Positions 31,747 to 60,822 of a stretch of 64,000 bases of DNA are shown piece by piece. Numbering within the stretch: position 1 is the stretch's first letter; every line of letters begins with the position of its first letter. Both the position numbers and the translations under genes were made by a program. The notes under the pieces were generated by a model. It had not been told where the DNA came from, did no database searches, and saw nothing but the letters and a program-made list of their open reading frames with translations. Location: positions 32,001-96,000 of IMG/VR virus record IMGVR_UViG_3300032288_004702. One strand, given 5' to 3'. The DNA is from a virus.

Positions 31747-32804
31747 CTGTTCAGCTCGTACCATCCACCTCCCCATAGTGTTTCAAGTCTCCTGAAGTAT
31801 CGCTCATACATCAAACCTACAGCGTCGAGGCCGTATCTGTTCTTTGCGTATTGACCTATTGCCCGCCTATCAAGCTTTTCAGCATTAAGTGCCGCGTCAA
31901 TAAATTCCCGGAGTGTGTGACATCTAAAACCAGTTACCCCATCTTGCACTGTTTCTGTGAACGCCCCCCAGTCCGTTGATATTACGGGCGAGCCGCAGGC
32001 CATGGCCTCAATTGCGACAGTCCCAAATGGCTCAACGTATATTGTTGGAGTGAAAGTGGCTATTGCTCCACCCATTAATTTTGCTCTCTCTTCAGTCCCT
32101 ACTACGCCAACATACTCACCGTATTCCGGGGGTATTCCCTGACCTGCAATAATTAACCGCTTCCCAAGGTGTTTGCAAACATCTACAGCAATTTGATAAC
32201 CCTTGCGCTCTATTAGTCTTCCGATGTAGAGGTAGTAGTCATCTGGTTCTATTTGTGTCGGAAAATCATCGACATCTATATAGCTAGGTATTACGGTATC
32301 GTAGAACTTGCCATCTAGTACATGCGGGTCAGTAACTTTGGAGCCATAACAGGAGTGCATCCATGCATACGACTCAAAAACTTTGTACTTAGCGAAAGAA
32401 CCGCCGTATCCAATTCCGAACTCTACGCTTAGCTCGTCTGGAAAAGCATCTGCAATTGGCTTAGAGGCATAACCGGCGATGAGGCAAATAAAGTCCTTGT
32501 GCTCAAGACGCTTACGCATCTGATAAATAACATTTCCATTAAAAGTAACCCAGTGGGGCAGATTCCAGTCAAATGATGCTGCTGAATAGTGATTTTGCCC
32601 AACTGCTTGCAGCCGCTGCTCCTCGGTAATGCACATAATATGCTCATCACATGACGCTTCATTGAACTCTCCACCGTAAAGAAACACGGTATGGCCCAAG
32701 TTCTTCATCATTATGCAGAACTTGCGGACCTTCTCCGTATAAGCGCAGGCTGTAAATTCTTCAGTAGTGTTGGTGTGTGGTAGTGAAACTACGTGGAAAC
32801 GCAT
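31743..32804 (-). CDS. GT-B (GT4-like) glycosyltransferase
   Basis: YIGRLIERKG, EPFGTVAIEAMACGSPVI, DGVTGF. Confidence 0.93.
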   Translation of the reverse strand: MRFHVVSLPHTNTTEEFTACAYTEKVRKFCIMMKNLGHTVFLYGGEFNEASCDEHIMCITEEQRLQAVGQNHYSAASFDWNLPHWVTFNGNVIYQMRKRLEHKDFICLIAGYASKPIADAFPDELSVEFGIGYGGSFAKYKVFESYAWMHSCYGSKVTDPHVLDGKFYDTVIPSYIDVDDFPTQIEPDDYYLYIGRLIERKGYQIAVDVCKHLGKRLIIAGQGIPPEYGEYVGVVGTEERAKLMGGAIATFTPTIYVEPFGTVAIEAMACGSPVISTDWGAFTETVQDGVTGFRCHTLREFIDAALNAEKLDRRAIGQYAKNRYGLDAVGLMYERYFRRLETLWGGGWYELNS

Positions 32805-32813
32805 TAAACCATC

Positions 32814-33782
32814 TTAATACTTGATAATGTAATTAACCGTAAGCATGGGCTGGATGTTTTCAACTGCGGAACTGGCCGTATACCCACCGTCCGTCGTGTT
32901 TGACGTGCTCGGTCCGCCTGTTGTTAGGTTGTTTGTATCAACCGTGACTGTATGTGCATGGCTATTGACACCATGCGAATGGTCGGAACTATGTCTATGG
33001 TCGTACATGCCATGGTTGTGGTATGGGTTTGAGTCGCCAGAGGTGCCGTTTGTGAACGAATGTTGATGGCTTCCTTCGTACTCCGATATTCCATAATTGG
33101 AAAGGTTTTGGCCCGATGCCGAAACCCTGGCTCTTGCCGTTCCCGACCCGGCATCAGTTACAAAATAAAGCCTATGCTCGTGATAGCCGGCTGAGTAATG
33201 GGTGTGGTCGACGCTGTGGTTGTGATTAATCGATACCGACTCTGTTCCGCTGGGGCTGGGAGAGCCTATTCCTGCAGATGCGGTGGTCGTACTGGTGGAT
33301 GTACCACCACTATTTCCCGTATTTGTTCCCACAGTATGGGCATGGCTGGCACTGTGGGTATGGCTATTAAGGCCATGGACGTGCGCCGGCATATTGTTGG
33401 CCACTAGCGTTACGGATTCTGTTCCATACCAAGAGCCCAATGCCCTATTGGTAAGAGTAGAGCCGCCCGATATTGCCCCGGATGACGCAGAGGTGCCACC
33501 GCCAGAACCCTGACCGGCCCCAACTAGCGTTCGTCCTTTTGTGTTTGGAACATGAAAGGTTGTACTTCCGTCGCCAGCTCCAAATGTGGTTGATATTGCT
33601 GCAAACAAGTTTGCATAGGTTGTTCTTGAATATGTAGAACCATCGCATAGCAGCCAACCGTCGGGGGCAGACGAGCCTGCATACGGCATCATCGCACCCG
33701 GAGGTATCAATTCAAATCCAGCAGGAACAGAGTCTGTCGATACGGTAATCCCGTCCTTTACGGCAAATTTAGTTCTCGGCAT
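32814..33782 (-). CDS. Tail-collar domain fibre with 11 HxH motifs
   Basis: PPGAMMPYAGSSAPDGWLLCDG...GDGSTTF, repeated HxH, ends NIQP...NYIIKY. Confidence 0.9.
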   Translation of the reverse strand: MPRTKFAVKDGITVSTDSVPAGFELIPPGAMMPYAGSSAPDGWLLCDGSTYSRTTYANLFAAISTTFGAGDGSTTFHVPNTKGRTLVGAGQGSGGGTSASSGAISGGSTLTNRALGSWYGTESVTLVANNMPAHVHGLNSHTHSASHAHTVGTNTGNSGGTSTSTTTASAGIGSPSPSGTESVSINHNHSVDHTHYSAGYHEHRLYFVTDAGSGTARARVSASGQNLSNYGISEYEGSHQHSFTNGTSGDSNPYHNHGMYDHRHSSDHSHGVNSHAHTVTVDTNNLTTGGPSTSNTTDGGYTASSAVENIQPMLTVNYIIKY

Positions 33783-34304: not shown

Positions 34305-35065
34305 CTTTTTTTCCCACCATTTATAGGGCACTCGCTCAACATTTTATCAACCTTTATGCGTTCGCGCCTGTATGGACCCGCCGTTCCATCATGTGGCGCT
34401 ATGTGCCCCATCCCAAAACCAGTAGTGGCGACGTATTTAAAGTAGGACTCATCGTTGAAAACGATTTCCTCAAAATCTGAGTCTCTCTTAAACGGAATCA
34501 ACTGTGCAATTGGTGTTCCGACTTTTATGGAGAATGGGGCATTCCCCGTTATGTTTAGAACGATGTTGGCCAGGTGGTAATAATCTGTATTTATTATTGC
34601 CGGAAGAACTGAGAAGTTTTCATTCGGCTCCCAGTGAATAGGCAGAAGAATGGTTGACCACCCAGGCGCAGTCTCGAATCTCCAGGGGTTCACGAGTTTC
34701 GGATACTGCCCTGTTTCTATTTGCCTCATATCGGTTACTGGACACGAGCCGGTTGACTCATAAGCAAAGCCCTGAACGTTGTTGATACCAGCCTGGGGGC
34801 TGAAGTCATCCCCGCCCGTCTCCCAAGCTCCATGAGAATCTGGTCTAAATCGGTAGTTTGTCCAAAGGGGAAGGGTTACACCTGCCCCTAGATAATCGAT
34901 TGTCCCTGCGCAGCGCCTGATGGAGCCCTGATGTTTCCCAATTCTTTTAAACCATGAAGGCTGATTGGTAACGCTGTTTACGAATGGCGGAAACTCCATC
35001 ATTCTGTTGTCAACTGGAGTAAATCTAATTTGACCGGGTTTTACAGGGGGGAGCTTATGGCTCAT
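34280..35065 (-). CDS. dUTPase-like-fold hypothetical protein (DUF6065-like)
   Basis: IRRCAG, PWRFETAPGWS, PAIINTDYY, IKVGTPIAQLIPFKR; ATGA overlap with the halogenase stop. Confidence 0.65.
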   Translation of the reverse strand: MSHKLPPVKPGQIRFTPVDNRMMEFPPFVNSVTNQPSWFKRIGKHQGSIRRCAGTIDYLGAGVTLPLWTNYRFRPDSHGAWETGGDDFSPQAGINNVQGFAYESTGSCPVTDMRQIETGQYPKLVNPWRFETAPGWSTILLPIHWEPNENFSVLPAIINTDYYHLANIVLNITGNAPFSIKVGTPIAQLIPFKRDSDFEEIVFNDESYFKYVATTGFGMGHIAPHDGTAGPYRRERIKVDKMLSECPINGGKKRWKIFKKK

Positions 35066-36612
35066 TTGTACAACCATTCTTCATCGGGAGACGAAAGCTC
35101 TCTTAAAGCGGTTGCGTGGTCAACTAATTCATGGTTGTGTCTGCCCTGTCGCATTTTATCAATTTCGTAAAATACCTGTTCACGTATGGCCATCATATTC
35201 ATAGCGCGAGTGCAGGCATCTTTGCTTATTATTCCCTGGCCTTGGGCCACGTGGGCCAGGTGTGGAGCTTGGAACATTTCTCCTGAATTTGATTCGAAGT
35301 CATAACGTGACGGAGGTTTTTCTGACCAAAGCTCTATCAATTCTTGCAACTCTTCATTTATTGGCATGTTCGACATTTCTTTCCAAAAGGGAGTATCTTG
35401 TCTGTCGGTATAATAATGAAGCCTAATCATTGTCAGTATGTTGCGCATCATTTTGTCAAAACCCTTATTGAAATGTTTTTGCGACGCCGTGTGTCCCGGT
35501 GCGTAGGATGCAATATATGGAATTGACTGCCTAACTTGTTGAATCGTCGAACCAATGCTTGTCGCCTCAAGTGGCTCGACAAAAGAAGAAGCTAAACCTA
35601 TTGCTATGCAGTTTTTCACCCATGAATTTCTCAAATATCCGGCATCAAATGAAATTATTCGCGGATTTTCTACTTTGTATCCGGTCATTTTTTCTGCTTC
35701 AGCGATTGCCTGTTCCGGTGCCAAAAACTCGGAACAGAATACATAACCGTTTCCTCGACGCTCTTGAGTAGGAATCTCCCACATCCACCCCGAAGAAGCA
35801 GCCCTTGCTCTGGTGTATGGCCGTATCTTCCCATTTGGGTCACTTTCAGTTGGGAAAGGTATCGCTGTGTTGCTAAGAAGATACTTATTAAACGAAACCC
35901 ATTCTGTGTTGCCTAGCTTTGTCATCAAAAGTCTATTAAATCCACTCGCATCAAACCAAAAATCTGCATTGACTTCATCGCCTTGTGCAGTCTTTATTGA
36001 CTTAATGTTCCCATTTTCCGGGTTGACCAATACTTCCGAAACATCTCCATCGACAAACTTGACAGAACGCTTGAATGCGAGTGAAATAAAATACTCGTTT
36101 AGCTTAAACGTGTCAAAATGAAACTGATTCGTACTTGAGTGCAGTCCATTACGGCTTATTTTATCTTTTATGATTCCAACGCTTGATGTGTTTGGGGTAA
36201 ATAATCTGTCCTGCTCCATTAATCCCATGTAGGTTCCATAGAGACCAAAAGCAAAGATGTCGTCTACGGCCCCAACGCTGTGAAAATAGTCTGGATTTTT
36301 ATTGCACCAGTTTTCATACCTAATCCCATATTTATGGGTGGCGGATGTGGCGACAATCATTTCCTCCAAAGGGATTTCGCATATATCCATGAACTGGCGC
36401 CAATGCTCAGTGGAGCCCTCACCAACGCCGATTATTCCAATCTTTGATGAAGAAACTACGGTTATTTCAGATAGCGGAAAGGCTTTTCTGAGCAGCAAGG
36501 ATGCGATAAGACCGGCAGTGCCGGAGCCAACAATTGCTACTGATTGCGGCTTTTGACCAATTCCATTTGTGCGAATGTTTGTTAGGTCTTGGTTAGTCAC
36601 CATGTTTGACAT
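35062..36612 (-). CDS. Flavin-dependent tryptophan halogenase family protein
   Basis: GSGTAG FAD motif, GVGEGS, catalytic-Lys region ATHKYGIRYENW, FHFD, WMWEIP (WxWxIP), GLASSFVEPLEATSI. Confidence 0.93.
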   Translation of the reverse strand: MSNMVTNQDLTNIRTNGIGQKPQSVAIVGSGTAGLIASLLLRKAFPLSEITVVSSSKIGIIGVGEGSTEHWRQFMDICEIPLEEMIVATSATHKYGIRYENWCNKNPDYFHSVGAVDDIFAFGLYGTYMGLMEQDRLFTPNTSSVGIIKDKISRNGLHSSTNQFHFDTFKLNEYFISLAFKRSVKFVDGDVSEVLVNPENGNIKSIKTAQGDEVNADFWFDASGFNRLLMTKLGNTEWVSFNKYLLSNTAIPFPTESDPNGKIRPYTRARAASSGWMWEIPTQERRGNGYVFCSEFLAPEQAIAEAEKMTGYKVENPRIISFDAGYLRNSWVKNCIAIGLASSFVEPLEATSIGSTIQQVRQSIPYIASYAPGHTASQKHFNKGFDKMMRNILTMIRLHYYTDRQDTPFWKEMSNMPINEELQELIELWSEKPPSRYDFESNSGEMFQAPHLAHVAQGQGIISKDACTRAMNMMAIREQVFYEIDKMRQGRHNHELVDHATALRELSSPDEEWLYK

Positions 36613-37529: not shown

Positions 37530-37779
37530 CGTCTTCCTCTTGTTTAAATGACGGCATTGGCGTCGACATGAAAATGCACCTAAACTTATCACCTTCTGAG
37601 TCGATGACAGCATGTTGGGTTAGGTCGTATTTTTTGGCTACCCACTCCATCTCGTCGTAATCTGCTTCAACCAGGTCTTGGTGGTCTTTTTCTTTTAGTG
37701 AATCGCCATCCCATGGCCTTCTATTTCTTATGTTTCCTATTGGTCTAAAATGCGATGAAAAATAACTGAATATACTCAT
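37522..37779 (-). CDS. Hypothetical protein
   Basis: Translationally coupled to the oxygenase gene. Confidence 0.6.
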   Translation of the reverse strand: MSIFSYFSSHFRPIGNIRNRRPWDGDSLKEKDHQDLVEADYDEMEWVAKKYDLTQHAVIDSEGDKFRCIFMSTPMPSFKQEEDDD

Positions 37780-38357
37780 CTAAACCACGTCACTAACGAA
37801 TATTTAGTCCCAGCGACCACGGGGTGCGCTATATGGAGATATGGAAAATTGCTAGGAAACATAACTACCGAACCTGCTTCGCATTCTACGGTTGTATCAA
37901 ATAGGGGGAACTCTAAACTTCCGCCCGATTCGGGGGAAACAAGGTTTGCAACCATACTGAAAACTCTGGCGTTATCCCTGAAATGGTCATAGTGGCTATG
38001 GTATTCAGACTCTGGCAAATATTTGAGCACTTGATACGGCTCGAACACTGCGCTCGCTATTAAATATTCTTTTCTATAGTCTTCCGCAACCTCAGCAACC
38101 TGGTCTCCTATTGTTCTTTGAAAAAACTTAGACAATTCGGTTTCTGGATATGGTTTCATAAATGAAACTAACGAGCAGGATAAAGAAGTGCGATATTGCG
38201 TTATGGCACCCTGGCCAACACCAGACGAACCCCATCCGAGCTCTGACCATTCATTTTCAATTTCTTCATTAAGCATATTTATAAAAGATTTCGCCATATC
38301 TGGCTCGAAAACTTCTTTATATACGGTTATGCAGGTTGCTGGTTTTTCAATTTTCAT
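37776..38357 (-). CDS. 2OG-Fe(II) oxygenase (prolyl-4-hydroxylase-like)
   Basis: RTS, YQVLKY, HYD, GGSLEF, FPSNFPYLH, VVAGTKYSLVTW. Confidence 0.92.
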   Translation of the reverse strand: MKIEKPATCITVYKEVFEPDMAKSFINMLNEEIENEWSELGWGSSGVGQGAITQYRTSLSCSLVSFMKPYPETELSKFFQRTIGDQVAEVAEDYRKEYLIASAVFEPYQVLKYLPESEYHSHYDHFRDNARVFSMVANLVSPESGGSLEFPLFDTTVECEAGSVVMFPSNFPYLHIAHPVVAGTKYSLVTWFR

Positions 38358-38776
38358 ACAACCTCAAAGGAAGATACTAAAAATTTTTCATCATTATCGA
38401 ATATGGCAAATTCATATGTGCCTGCTTCATGGAAGCGAGTTCTAAACTTTACGACGTGGCGCTCCAGGACTGTTGGTTTATGGCTAGTTTTAACCCCGGC
38501 TGGCGAAACAGTTTCCATTCTTGTTTCTCGGCCCATATTGAGAAATTCGTTTGTTACGTCTACAGAAAAAATACGGCCGGACTTAACTGTCTCGTCGTGG
38601 TTGGCGGCACAAAACTCAGGAACTGAAATAATAGAAATTGATTCCTTATTTATACCGTCTCCAATGGAGCCAGTCCTGATTGACAGCTGGGCATCTTTTG
38701 CGAGTTTTTCAGCTTCTTTTGGTACTACCAAATCATTTTCAACTAGAAAATGCGGGACATAGACAAAACGTTTCAT
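38354..38776 (-). CDS. Hypothetical protein
   Basis: Coupled 140-aa ORF. Confidence 0.7.
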   Translation of the reverse strand: MKRFVYVPHFLVENDLVVPKEAEKLAKDAQLSIRTGSIGDGINKESISIISVPEFCAANHDETVKSGRIFSVDVTNEFLNMGRETRMETVSPAGVKTSHKPTVLERHVVKFRTRFHEAGTYEFAIFDNDEKFLVSSFEVV

Positions 38777-39009
38777 TGAAGCTCATTTAGCTTACTTTCA
38801 ATTAGCTCCAAGGCCGAAACAAGACCCCTGACCCTATTGTATTCACCGGCAAATGAACCATCCGTTGATGTTGGAAGCTCGTCAACAGAAGCAAAGGTAT
38901 CCGGGTCTATGCCTAGGCGAATAAGGATGTTGTAAATCTCTGTCGTGATTCCGGCTTTCGAGTTCCGAAGGGCCATCTCTTTTTGTTGATTTGTCAAACC
39001 AAGGTCCAT
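38773..39009 (-). CDS. Hypothetical protein
   Basis: ggag RBS; coupled 78-aa ORF. Confidence 0.7.
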   Translation of the reverse strand: MDLGLTNQQKEMALRNSKAGITTEIYNILIRLGIDPDTFASVDELPTSTDGSFAGEYNRVRGLVSALELIESKLNELQ

Positions 39010-39017
39010 TTTTTCTC

Positions 39018-40769
39018 CTAAACATTCAGTAGGACATAGGAACTTCCAGAAGATGCGGAAAAATTATCCGAATCGGCCGTAAGACCAGCCCTTGTATCAT
39101 ATGTAATCGTAGCATCTATGGAGTCGGTAAGGACGAGGATTGAGCCCCCTCCACCTGCTCCACCACGCTTTCCAGTTGAGCCTATTCCGCCTGTTCCCCC
39201 TGCGCCACCCGCTCCGCCGGCGCCCCCTGCTCCGCCTGCCCCTCCAGCCCCTCCGGCGCCCCCCACTCCGCCTGGTCCGCCTGGTCCACCTGCATAGTGG
39301 CTATTGGGGTTCGGGTGTGTATGTGGTGCTACGTGGTGATGGTGCCAGGTGGGTGTAGTTGTTGGATGGTGTGCATGTGTGTGGCTATGGTGCGGAAGGC
39401 CAAAATGAGCATGGACATGTCCATCGTGTCCGCCAAACGAACCGTGATAAACGCCTGAGTGGTGATACCCGTTTCCGTCTCCATGGCTATGGCCACCGTG
39501 GCCGTTCGGCTTTTGGTGGTAGTGGGGGAACGGGTGACTGTGGCTTATCTGGAAATAAGCATGCCACCAATGACCATCCCAGTGATGAGCGCCACCATGT
39601 GGACCATCATTATGCGGGTGGTGATAGTGACCAGCATGGTGATGGTGTGGTCCTAGATAGTGATGACCCTTGCCGCCATCAACGTGGGCCCTAACGGAGT
39701 GCGCATGCCGGTCTGAGTGATTTGTGTAATGGTGATGGTGGGAATAATTTCGCGCATCAGGGTTTGGTACGGAGGTTGCCGGGTTTGAGTGAGTAATTCC
39801 AGGCGCTGCAGAGCCGGGAGTTCCTGCAGAGCCGGGAGTTCCTGTGGCCCCAGATGCTCCAGGAGAACCGCTAGCCCCACTTGCGCCAACTGCTCCGGTT
39901 GTTCCAGGGCTTCCAGCAGAACCCGTAGAACCGGACATTCCTAGTGAAATAAATTTTCCCGAACCTGTGATGTACTTTGCCACAATGCAGACAACGCCAC
40001 CACCCATCCCGCCAGTTCCTCCAGCGCCTCCAGCTCCACCAACGCCAGAAGCACCAGGACTACCACTAGCACCACGATTTCCACTAGCACCCGAAGCGCC
40101 CACGGAACCAGGTGAACCCGAAGCACCTGGATAGCCTTTTCCACCAGAAGCGCCAACGGTTGAAGCATTTGGTGGATATGCGCCATTAGCCCCTGGAGTG
40201 CCAGTAGCACCAGCGGAGCCAGCAGAACCAGGAGAGCCAGTAGCACCAGGAGAGCCGGTGGCACCAGCAGAACCAGCAGGCGAGGAACCGGATGCGCCCA
40301 CCGAACCAGTTGAGCCGCGCGAGCCACCAGACATTGGTGAAACACCAAGTGTTGGGTCAATCATTAATCCACCAGACATGGCACTAATGTCTTTATATAG
40401 GTAGGAAGGCAATGCTGTAACGCCGGGGTTGGTCCCACCGCCACCCTGACCGCCGGTTCTGTATGTTATTGCGCCAGAAGTATGACCCTTTAATGTCCCA
40501 TCAGAAACAGCACTTGCTGGCTCCCCTATGGTTCCCGATGTAACGGAACCCAAACCAATGTACCCATCGTTAACTAAAGTGTTTTTTACAAAGACTCTGT
40601 AACCGTTTGTATTGAGAAAAACGCCAGAGTTAACGGTCAAATTATTGTAATACATGTCTGAAGTGATTGATGTATCAGAAGTGATTGTTACGTCGCCGTC
40701 TGTTCCACTCCCGTAGATTCCGTCATTTCCAGAACGACCGACACTTGACTCAACCCTATTGATAGCCAT
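39018..40769 (-). CDS. Glycine-rich fibre/adhesin with inserted His-rich domain
   Basis: YGSGTDGDV...NGYRVFVKNTL core, GxxGxx arms, ~165-aa segment with ~51 His. Confidence 0.85.
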   Translation of the reverse strand: MAINRVESSVGRSGNDGIYGSGTDGDVTITSDTSITSDMYYNNLTVNSGVFLNTNGYRVFVKNTLVNDGYIGLGSVTSGTIGEPASAVSDGTLKGHTSGAITYRTGGQGGGGTNPGVTALPSYLYKDISAMSGGLMIDPTLGVSPMSGGSRGSTGSVGASGSSPAGSAGATGSPGATGSPGSAGSAGATGTPGANGAYPPNASTVGASGGKGYPGASGSPGSVGASGASGNRGASGSPGASGVGGAGGAGGTGGMGGGVVCIVAKYITGSGKFISLGMSGSTGSAGSPGTTGAVGASGASGSPGASGATGTPGSAGTPGSAAPGITHSNPATSVPNPDARNYSHHHHYTNHSDRHAHSVRAHVDGGKGHHYLGPHHHHAGHYHHPHNDGPHGGAHHWDGHWWHAYFQISHSHPFPHYHQKPNGHGGHSHGDGNGYHHSGVYHGSFGGHDGHVHAHFGLPHHSHTHAHHPTTTPTWHHHHVAPHTHPNPNSHYAGGPGGPGGVGGAGGAGGAGGAGGAGGAGGAGGTGGIGSTGKRGGAGGGGSILVLTDSIDATITYDTRAGLTADSDNFSASSGSSYVLLNV

Positions 40770-40771
40770 AA

Positions 40772-41535
40772 CTACACCCGCGTAATGTAGATATATGTTC
40801 CAGGATTTTGACCAGTCACATCTGTTGATATTCCACTAGGAAGAGAGGAACCGGAAGAAACAACAATAATCACTCCGCCACCAGCAGGAGCTGTTCCTGG
40901 TGCTTTTATATATGCCGTTCCAGAAGAAGGTCCAGAAATGTATCTTGCTGCGATTATCACAACACCACCGCCAGCCTCGCCTGCACCGCCGGCACCTCCA
41001 CGTAGGAAACTTGGTCCACCGGATGCCGTAACGGCATAACCAGTAATAGCCTGATGTGCAACTCTGAAATAGTTTGGGCCACCCATCGCATCAGTTGGAG
41101 CCGTTGCCGAATATCCAGTAGCTGAGCCACCGAGAGAATGCGTTACAGCAGTTGCTGCTTCACCACCCTGCGCAATAGAACCAGCGGTTGAATAACCAGA
41201 CGTATATCCGATTGTCGCATTCGTTCCTGCAAACTTAAGAGTCCCCTTAACGAACACCCTGTATCCGTTCGGCTGAAGACGACAGCTTGTGTTGATTGTT
41301 AGGTCGTTGAAGAACATATCGCGCGTCATTGTGTAGACGCTTGCAGAAGGGCCCATCCCAAGTATGGTTGTTGAGCCATCAAGAACAACATCACCATCCG
41401 AGCCGTTGCCGTACACAATGTCAGCACCTTCGTTGTAGTAGGCAACCCACACAGAACCATCCCACTGCCAACTCTTTGAACCGACAGTATAAATCTGGTT
41501 TGTGTATGGAGAAGACGGAAAAGTAATCGCAGGCA

Positions 41536-41536
<1 letters not shown>
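40772..41536 (-). CDS. Glycine-rich fibre protein (short paralog of 39018-40769)
   Basis: N-terminal FPSSP...WQWDG; YGNGSDGDV...NGYRVFVKGTL; GGGVVIIAARYISG. Confidence 0.82.
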
Positions 41537-45532
<3,996 letters not shown>

Positions 45533-60471: not shown

Positions 60472-60822
60472 TTGTCAGACGCCGGCAAAAAGCCCACACA
60501 AAAATCACCCAATAAAAATGGGCAACCAGATACAGGACTAGATATACCTCGTAAGTCTTGGTTTGACCTTGCTAGTTGCAAAGGGAAAACCGAACTTATG
60601 TTTCCCAAACAACATAAGGACATTACATACATTGCGCAGGCGCGAGCCATCTGCAAATCATGCCCAGTGAAGAAGGAGTGTTTGGAGTACGCCCTAGAGT
60701 TCCCACCGGCAGATATGCATGGGGTATGGGCTGGTTTGACTAGTAGGCAGCTGGCGGCCGAACAGCGAAGACGCAAGATAAAGCCAACCCGACCAACCCT
60801 TGCACAGATGTGGGGGGACTAG
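60472..60822 (+). CDS. whiB: WhiB-family transcription factor
   Basis: W-x3-ASC, ARAICKSCPV-x2-ECL, GVWAG turn. Confidence 0.95.
   Translation: MSDAGKKPTQKSPNKNGQPDTGLDIPRKSWFDLASCKGKTELMFPKQHKDITYIAQARAICKSCPVKKECLEYALEFPPADMHGVWAGLTSRQLAAEQRRRKIKPTRPTLAQMWGD

Follow-up and report, generated by a model that had tools for sequence, protein, structure and literature searches.

The gp38 adhesins of T-even phages combine a beta-helix with a glycine-rich polyglycine-II sandwich and variable loops at the distal end (PMC12032242), and the tip of T4 gp37 contains seven iron ions that are coordinated by histidines in HxH motifs, according to a passage of PMC11705849 that cites Bartual 2010. Here, we analysed the gene of a protein of 583 amino acids (aa) in which a histidine-rich domain is inserted between glycine-rich arms, referred to below as the His-tip protein. 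The gene lies in a stretch of 64,000 nucleotides (nt) comprising positions 32,001 to 96,000 of the virus record IMGVR_UViG_3300032288_004702; this stretch is called the window, and positions refer to it unless another contig is named. By analogy to the histidine-bound iron of gp37 (PMC11705849) and to the architecture of gp38 (PMC12032242), our best reading, to which we give about an even chance, is that the protein presents a metal-loaded host-binding tip on a glycine-rich stalk and is of a kind not yet described.

The initial annotation of the window had described a domain of about 165 residues with about 51 histidines. Residues 326-492 (167 aa) indeed contain 51 His (30.5%), besides 21 Gly, 15 Pro, 9 Tyr and 4 Trp, and the other 416 residues of the protein contain a single His. 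All Trp of the protein are located in this domain (positions 397, 401, 402 and 475), in the strings HHWDGHWWH and TWHHHH that had already been pointed out. The domain contains neither Cys nor Glu and only 9 aliphatic residues, its grand average of hydropathy (GRAVY) is -1.46, and a conventional hydrophobic core is unlikely. The mirrored layout noticed earlier was recovered as well, with a Pro-rich segment followed by HHHH at the entry and HHHH followed by a Pro-rich segment at the exit, and is kept in the consensus of the homologues. Aligned to each other, the two Pro-rich segments behave as direct repeats of weak homology (hhalign P 7.5e-4, 13 columns), and the signals for an internal duplication of the domain are weak (P 0.026 for the two halves against each other).

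A word-indexed database search with the His region alone yielded 16 proteins of 515-585 aa with 40-63% identity over the region, and a scan of viral contigs yielded 25 loci with 17 distinct open reading frames (ORFs) carrying 32-67 His in the same frame. In an alignment of 33 sequences, 26 of the 51 His reach a conservation of 80% or more, as do a number of other residues, among them N387, D388, P390, G392, W402, K420, P421 and N422. The mean column conservation is 0.62 for the His domain versus 0.70-0.77 for the core, and residues 376-425, with values of about 0.8, are the best-conserved stretch of the protein. The rate of nonsynonymous substitution (dN) is 0.048 and 0.084 relative to the homologues in loci L006 and L008, respectively, with the synonymous rate (dS) being saturated. 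The extreme composition and the origin from a metagenome-assembled contig could raise the suspicion of an assembly or frame error, or of a simple-repeat expansion lacking any function, and the initial annotation had itself named homologues that are not His-rich in this frame as a possible refutation. The homologues are, however, His-rich in the same frame, and the domain recurs across many independent assemblies and sources. In addition, it is under purifying selection, tandem DNA repeats are confined to the Gly-rich arms and spare the His domain, and the His codons are mixed (30 CAC and 21 CAT). The domain is thus a real, conserved and in-frame feature, and we regard an artefact as almost certainly the wrong explanation.

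Relatives of the domain were found within its own architecture: a profile of the His domain gave 10 matches among 1.84 billion cluster representatives, all of them with the same architecture or fragments of it. The same kind of profile (A3) had no match at an expectation value (E) of <=10 among all PDB sequences, and profile A1 had no meaningful match there. Searches against Pfam, PHROGs and NCBIfam returned nothing but collagen-type matches on the arms, with no match for the His domain or for a 254-aa paralogue encoded next to it, and the region, the His-tip protein and the paralogue had no megablast or tblastn match among 50,697 GenBank phage records. In the literature, we found no description of His-rich phage fibre domains or of fibre-linked phage halogenases. 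The His domain is a new domain family on a new scaffold, which is gp38-like in layout and not homologous to gp38.

The arrangement of the histidines was compared with that in 5000 composition-matched shuffles of the domain. HxH occurs 12 times versus 10.6 +/- 2.8 in the shuffles (P 0.37) and HxHxH three times (P 0.38); none of the counts of HxH, HxHxH, HH and HHHH is in excess over the shuffles, with P ranging from 0.37 to 0.61 for the first three. The HxH spacing is at chance level and, therefore, not that of a periodic HxH zipper of the gp37 kind. This result bears on the possibility of a gp37-type trimeric needle, in which three intertwined chains would bind a column of Fe(II) or Zn by axial HxH motifs and form a longer version of the tip of the T4 long tail fibre. 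The 12 HxH and three HxHxH as such, the out-and-back topology, the fibre context and the precedent of the HxH-bound iron in the cited account of gp37 would be in line with such a needle, and AlphaFold2 hints, at low confidence, at long beta-hairpins. The same phage also encodes a second His-rich fibre protein (32814-33782, minus strand; 322 aa), in which a Phage Tail Collar domain (PF07484, E 6.6e-23) is followed by a C-terminal half with 23 His and many HxH, and which appears to be a fibre of the classical HxH metal-needle type. On the other hand, the His-tip protein has no sequence match to any PDB chain, and the motifs HNDGPHGG and HQKPNG contain conserved non-His residues, which speaks for specific sites and against a periodic zipper. 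Furthermore, we infer that four equal and concertedly varying antiparallel arms, as described below, cannot share one three-fold axis. Taken together with the motif counts, this makes the trimeric needle improbable.

That His is strictly conserved alongside Asn, Asp, Gly, Pro and Trp is suggestive of defined metal sites. In the metal-loaded tip that we favour, the domain would fold around several divalent ions (Zn, Fe, Ni or Cu), with imidazoles as well as Asp and Asn as ligands, and would bind the host envelope in this metal-loaded and strongly pH-sensitive state; both metal binding and receptor binding are proposed here by analogy. The computed net charge of the domain rises from approximately +2 at pH 7 to +23 at pH 6 and +36 at pH 5.5, and this would also agree with a metal-free, pH-switched polycationic adhesin, whose flexible His domain becomes strongly positive in mild acid and adheres to negatively charged polymers of the wall, for instance teichoic acids or phosphates. 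The lack of Glu, the low GRAVY, the low AlphaFold2 confidence in the domain, the probably Gram-positive host (two WhiB genes and a tail sheath nearest to actinophages, see below) and the recurrence of a His-rich composition in unrelated tips are compatible with this explanation, but the position-specific conservation of both His and non-His residues and the low dN argue for a defined fold. In addition, the pH of freshwater usually lies above the pKa of histidine. We attribute a small probability to such a metal-free adhesin.

The stalk had been described in the initial annotation as polyglycine, consisting of four GxxGxx/GGA arms, two of which flank the His domain. The four arms and the flanking position of two of them are real, but instead of polyglycine the stalk is a Gly-X-Y/GGA repeat with 66 Gly-X-Y triplets in five tracts (arms of 5+11, 18, 15 and 17 triplets), and residues 277-320 score as Pfam Collagen (PF01391; 37.9 bits versus a cut-off of 27.2). 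The arms contain 44% Gly and 6% Pro, position X is mostly occupied by Ser, Ala or Gly, and 12 of the 15 Pro in Gly-X-Y register are at position Y. The phage's own collagen-like fibres, in comparison, are of the GPT/GAT type with Pro at X and 33-36% Gly. Among 32 distinct homologues, the lengths of arms 1-4 fall into the classes (40,32,26,33), (55,46,41,49), (58,52,47,50) and (70,64,59,62), where one step between classes corresponds to a gain of exactly four triplets in all four arms, and the lengths of arms 2-4 are correlated with a Pearson r of 0.95-0.98. The exception to these concerted lengths is L008, with an extra 18 aa in arm 2: the proteins L008:6663-8567 and L009:6663-8513 are near-identical and differ by an 18-aa duplication in this arm only (76 versus 58 residues), which may be due to recent slippage or to an assembly difference. 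For a short-armed homologue (L015; 536 aa, 56 sequences), AlphaFold2 returned a predicted local distance difference test (pLDDT) of 91-98 for the core and the four arms as far as the points where the chain enters and leaves the His domain, and DSSP assigned neither helix nor strand to the arms of this model. The concerted lengths and the AlphaFold2 confidence are the main evidence that the four arms form a single four-stranded bundle, as had been proposed, the conformation of which would be of the polyglycine-II type. As the chain leaves one core and returns to it twice, the arms are antiparallel, a topology that speaks against all of them being homotrimeric collagen helices with a common axis. 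The His domain itself is located between two antiparallel arms, which supports the earlier notion of an out-and-back excursion from a core common to the paralogue. In our model, the core would extend two Gly-X-Y hairpins, giving four antiparallel arms of 16-18 triplets each that pack side by side into a bundle with a length of about 15 nm, if fully extended at approximately 3.1 Å per residue, and the far end of this bundle would carry a short turn and the 167-residue His domain.

The core would be a beta-solenoid that is built from three separated segments and common to the 254-aa paralogue. For the protein of the window (33 sequences), AlphaFold2 gave a pLDDT >85 at residues 20-80, 250-280 and 530-583, and the first 12 residues are poorly conserved and of low pLDDT. 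In an exhaustive structural comparison, the best matches were the beta-helix proteins pertactin, IcsA, bactofilin and FHA with Z scores of 5-7, a level that indicates a common arrangement only. Foldseek found no match of either model (window protein and L015) in the PDB at E <=0.001, and structural matches in BFVD were discarded, as they had root-mean-square deviations of 15-30 Å and were driven by the Gly-rich sequence. The earlier claim that the paralogue has the same core and lacks the two insertions holds for the N-terminal core (BLASTP 1e-14; hhalign 99.5% with the paralogue family) and for the lack of the insertions, but the GGGVV..A.YI.G and GGG.I.V motifs of the paralogue were recognised by eye only (17-aa match, E 1.3).

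A search with the N-terminal core returned 105 proteins at E <=1e-3, all of which are named only 'hypothetical protein', and three viral clusters of the ESM Atlas matched with template modelling (TM) scores of 0.53-0.61; a search of the ESM Atlas by features gave no usable match. These proteins constitute an unnamed family of Gly-rich beta-solenoid fibre domains with the core motif YG.G.DG.V...NG.R.FVK. The same core and Gly-rich module also forms the C-terminal domain of longer fibre-like proteins of unrelated phages (L029:4424-6496 and L030:5809-6930), which have no His tip, and Pfam and PHROG contain no family for the module, including these His-free relatives. Of 120 proteins fetched in the family searches, 71 contain a 100-residue window with at least 15% His. 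The element between arms 3 and 4 falls into at least 12 BLAST-unrelated tip clusters in 73 segmentable proteins, and 8 of these clusters have at least 11% His. His-rich alternatives comprise tandem repeats of HPAGHNPHV, types with HHHVTAHHH/PTPPTP and short His/Cys tips, His-free alternatives comprise a Cys/Trp domain and an F/P/N-rich domain, and in some homologues the turn of the first hairpin has gained His as well. This recurrence of His-richness in unrelated modules points to selection on composition. The initial annotation had suggested checking whether the insert is hypervariable. Among close relatives it is not, given the conservation stated above, but across the wider family it is replaced by unrelated modules; the His domain thus appears to be conserved in its clade and yet to occupy an exchangeable distal site of the scaffold. 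As this position is the exchangeable distal end of the family, the domain is most likely a ligand-binding tip.

Several points weigh against a metal-loaded host-binding tip on a polyglycine-II bundle. Conservation at the level of the clade, rather than hypervariability, is unusual for a receptor-contacting tip. The pLDDT of the His domain is 28-77 (<50 in the model of the window protein), and on its own the domain could be disordered. The length classes of the arms are shared by kin, so that independent concerted changes are few (about 3-4). One of the arms is called Collagen by Pfam, and polyglycine II is the conformation that we infer for it. Finally, the N-terminal FP.SP...W.WDG module common to the paralogue and the collagen-like fibres is missing from the His-tip protein.

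Table 1 Features of the His-tip protein and of its gene neighbourhood (positions in the window).
Feature	Position	Strand	Remarks
Whole ORF of the His-tip protein; fibre-module protein with predicted beta-solenoid core, four Gly-rich arms and His-rich tip	39018..40769	-	583 aa
N-terminal part of the predicted beta-solenoid core, aa 13-147, common to the paralogue	40329..40733	-	pLDDT 83-98; hhalign 99.5%; beta-helix matches with Z 5-7 (VIA-align)
Arm 1 (outward Gly-X-Y) and distal turn 1, AYPPNASTV, aa 148-205	40155..40328	-	pLDDT of turn region ~80 in the window model
Arm 2 (returning Gly-X-Y, GGX repeats at end), aa 206-257	39999..40154	-	
Middle core strands, aa 258-276, VVCIVAKYITGSGKFISL	39942..39998	-	Conservation 0.77 (core block aa 248-278); pLDDT >90
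Arm 3 (outward Gly-X-Y), aa 277-323	39801..39941	-	Pfam Collagen match
His-rich tip domain, aa 324-492	39294..39800	-	51 His, all 4 Trp; conserved motifs H.HH.GH.HHPHNDGPHGG.HHW..H.WHA, HQKPNGH and GGHDGH
Arm 4 (returning, GGA/GGX repeats), aa 493-542	39144..39293	-	
C-terminal core strands, aa 543-583	39021..39143	-	Conservation 0.75 (C-core block aa 536-583); pLDDT 83-96
Paralogue, 254 aa; core without the two insertions, plus N-terminal FP.SP...W.WDG module	40772..41536	-	BLASTP, hhalign
Two collagen-like (GPT/GAT) tail-fibre genes, directly upstream in a tightly packed gene run	41536..45532	-	
Two small conserved ORFs (78 and 140 aa), directly downstream	38354..39009	-	No family match
2-oxoglutarate (2OG)-Fe(II) oxygenase, prolyl-4-hydroxylase-like	37776..38357	-	PF13640 E 3e-12; PDB prolyl 4-hydroxylases E ~1e-3; syntenic
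Flavin-dependent Trp-halogenase family gene	35062..36612	-	PF04820 E 2e-101; PDB halogenases E 5e-56

The source virus record comprises 156,276 bp with direct terminal repeats, and its gene products include a tail sheath and a baseplate wedge protein. The closest sheath proteins of cultured phages, with 36% identity, are those of Gordonia, Arthrobacter and Brevibacterium phages, and there are two WhiB-like genes (PF02467, above the Pfam cut-off; 57.8 and 55.9 bits), one at G000:C1:1119-1337 on the minus strand and one at 60559-60750 on the plus strand of the window. On the basis of the two WhiB genes and of sheath proteins nearest to actinophages, an actinobacterial host is likely for this uncultured myovirus. 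WhiB genes are also present on several related contigs (L033, L034, L037 and L038).

The His-tip gene is the fourth gene in a run on the minus strand, following the two collagen-like fibre genes and the paralogue, and starts 2 nt past the stop codon of the latter. The gene order around it is kept in approximately 20 loci, down to about 40% identity, with the paralogue directly upstream in at least 20 loci. Gene position alone suggests that the product is a structural protein of the tail-fibre module and is incorporated into the virion. Almost every related locus has the 78- and 140-aa ORFs next to the His-tip gene, and they could encode fibre assembly factors. Within the His domain, the motif HWDGHWWHAYF (aa 396-406; 39560-39592, minus strand) is the best conserved and aligns to the W.WDG..W..Y module of the paralogue (aa 24-34; 41435-41467, minus strand; BLASTP E 0.023), which also occurs in the collagen-like fibres; this match may reflect a shared Trp-rich beta-hairpin or chance.

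With respect to the genes further downstream, a Trp_halogenase gene was found within five genes downstream in 6/6 lineages with a His-rich tip versus 0/7 His-poor lineages (counted as His-rich were the clade of the window, P0056, P0077, P0045, P0098 and P0074; the His-poor set includes L030). Besides the window, halogenase loci are L035, L036, L037, L040 and L041, and some of the halogenase-linked loci have different genomic surroundings; in one of them, a capsid gene lies 5 kb upstream. This distribution could mean that the tip is above all a substrate, whose His, Tyr, Trp or Pro residues are modified by the halogenase and the 2OG oxygenase to give a halogenated, hydroxylated or cross-linked appendage. 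Such tailoring would be compatible with metal binding. The recurrence of the module in other genome contexts, the location of all four Trp in the His domain and the preference of the arm Pro for position Y, the classical site of prolyl 4-hydroxylases, speak in its favour, but in a tree of the N-terminal core the members that are His-poor and lack the halogenase group partly in a clade of their own, which leaves only 1-2 independent contrasts, and shared descent could explain the link. In addition, several His-rich tips have few or no Trp (none in the domain of L020, and one per protein in P0077 and P0045), and the 2OG oxygenase gene accompanies His-free tips as well. The number of Pro at position Y is 12-14 in three oxygenase-positive proteins and 1-3 in four others, a weak link. 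The classical prolyl-4-hydroxylase site is X-Pro-Gly, and the neighbouring collagen-like fibres have Pro at X. To our knowledge, no halogenase of this family acts on His, and we know of no link to the virion for phage halogenases such as VirX1. We consider tailoring as the main role of the tip unlikely, and the association between halogenase and His tip is a lead rather than a result. A more far-reaching and rather doubtful version is that His tip and halogenase, together with the oxygenase, are one inherited unit, with which the phage would modify its own tip by halogenation and/or hydroxylation and also charge it with metal to obtain a hardened or otherwise unusual adhesive appendage. If true, this unit would be a viral counterpart of the Zn-hardened, halogenated His/Gly-rich jaw proteins and would provide a natural protein substrate for a phage halogenase.

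If the metal-loaded tip on a glycine-rich stalk holds, the protein stands for a new, widespread and unannotated host-recognition scaffold, composed of a beta-solenoid, a Gly-rich stalk of tunable length and a plug-in tip. Its bearers are uncultured phages, mostly with WhiB genes and thus probably with actinobacterial hosts, for which receptor-binding proteins are poorly known. A conserved domain that carries 51 His and all but lacks a hydrophobic core would take the organisation of a protein fold by metal to an extreme. Many more metal ions per virion would be possible than the seven Fe per T4 fibre tip, on which the 'Ferrojan horse' idea is founded, according to which phages act as ligands of metals in natural waters. 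The co-occurrence with a flavin-dependent halogenase would, under the same reading, offer a testable clue as to what phage halogenases naturally act on.

Among known systems, gp38 of the phages S16 and PP01 (PDB 6f45 chain D and 9v85) is the closest in layout: both gp38 and the His-tip protein consist of a beta-helix, a Gly-rich bundle and variable distal elements, although for the His-tip protein this is predicted, and the genes of both follow the fibre genes within the fibre module (PMC12032242). The gp38 chains 6f45_D and 9v85_C were among the structural matches with Z scores of 4.3-4.6 over 117-125 aligned residues. The initial annotation had proposed a polyglycine-II bundle as in T-even gp38; the predicted layout of beta-helix, bundle and distal variable element agrees with this, but membership in the gp38 family is not supported, since hhalign of the family alignments A5 and A4 against S16 gp38 gave probabilities of 0.1-0.2% and the structural similarity does not go beyond the Z scores mentioned. 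In line with this, profile A2 had no gp38 match at E <=1 among the PDB sequences. The two proteins also differ in their arms, which are four and long (Gly-X-Y, 16-18 triplets) in the His-tip protein versus ten short strands in gp38, and in the variable element, which is a whole domain of 167 aa versus loops of four residues. A gp38-type N-terminal attachment domain was not recognised in the His-tip protein. With the needle of T4 gp37, as described in the cited passage of PMC11705849, the His-tip protein would share the location at a phage fibre tip, the out-and-back course of the chain and many potentially metal-coordinating His. Unlike the needle, it has 30% His in its domain with HH and HHHH runs, HxH motifs that are not enriched over composition and no sequence similarity, and a trimer as in gp37 would be topologically awkward for four arms.

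Collagen-like fibres (PF01391; BclA-type GPT), such as the products of the two upstream genes, have Gly at every third residue, as do the arms. Unlike these fibres, the arms have Pro mostly at Y, 44% Gly and 6% Pro; they form antiparallel hairpins that change their length together, which speaks against parallel homotrimeric helices. The snow flea antifreeze protein is an antiparallel polyglycine-II bundle with Gly-X-X repeats. Such bundles, as well as the GGA/GGN domains of mycobacterial PE_PGRS proteins (PMC7830552), resemble the stalk in their tripeptides of Gly and small residues, in their alternating strands and in GGA repeats like those of arm 4. They are unrelated proteins with other functions, and for the His-tip protein the polyglycine-II conformation is a prediction. 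With regard to the tip, there are His/Gly-rich proteins in animals that are hardened by metal, namely the Nereis jaw protein Nvjp-1 and the His-rich flanks of the preCols of the mussel byssus. Although these proteins are eukaryotic, have no sequence relation to the His domain and are alike in composition only, they share with it a content of approximately 25-35% His together with Gly and aromatic residues, a position beside collagen-like sequence and a halogenation chemistry nearby.

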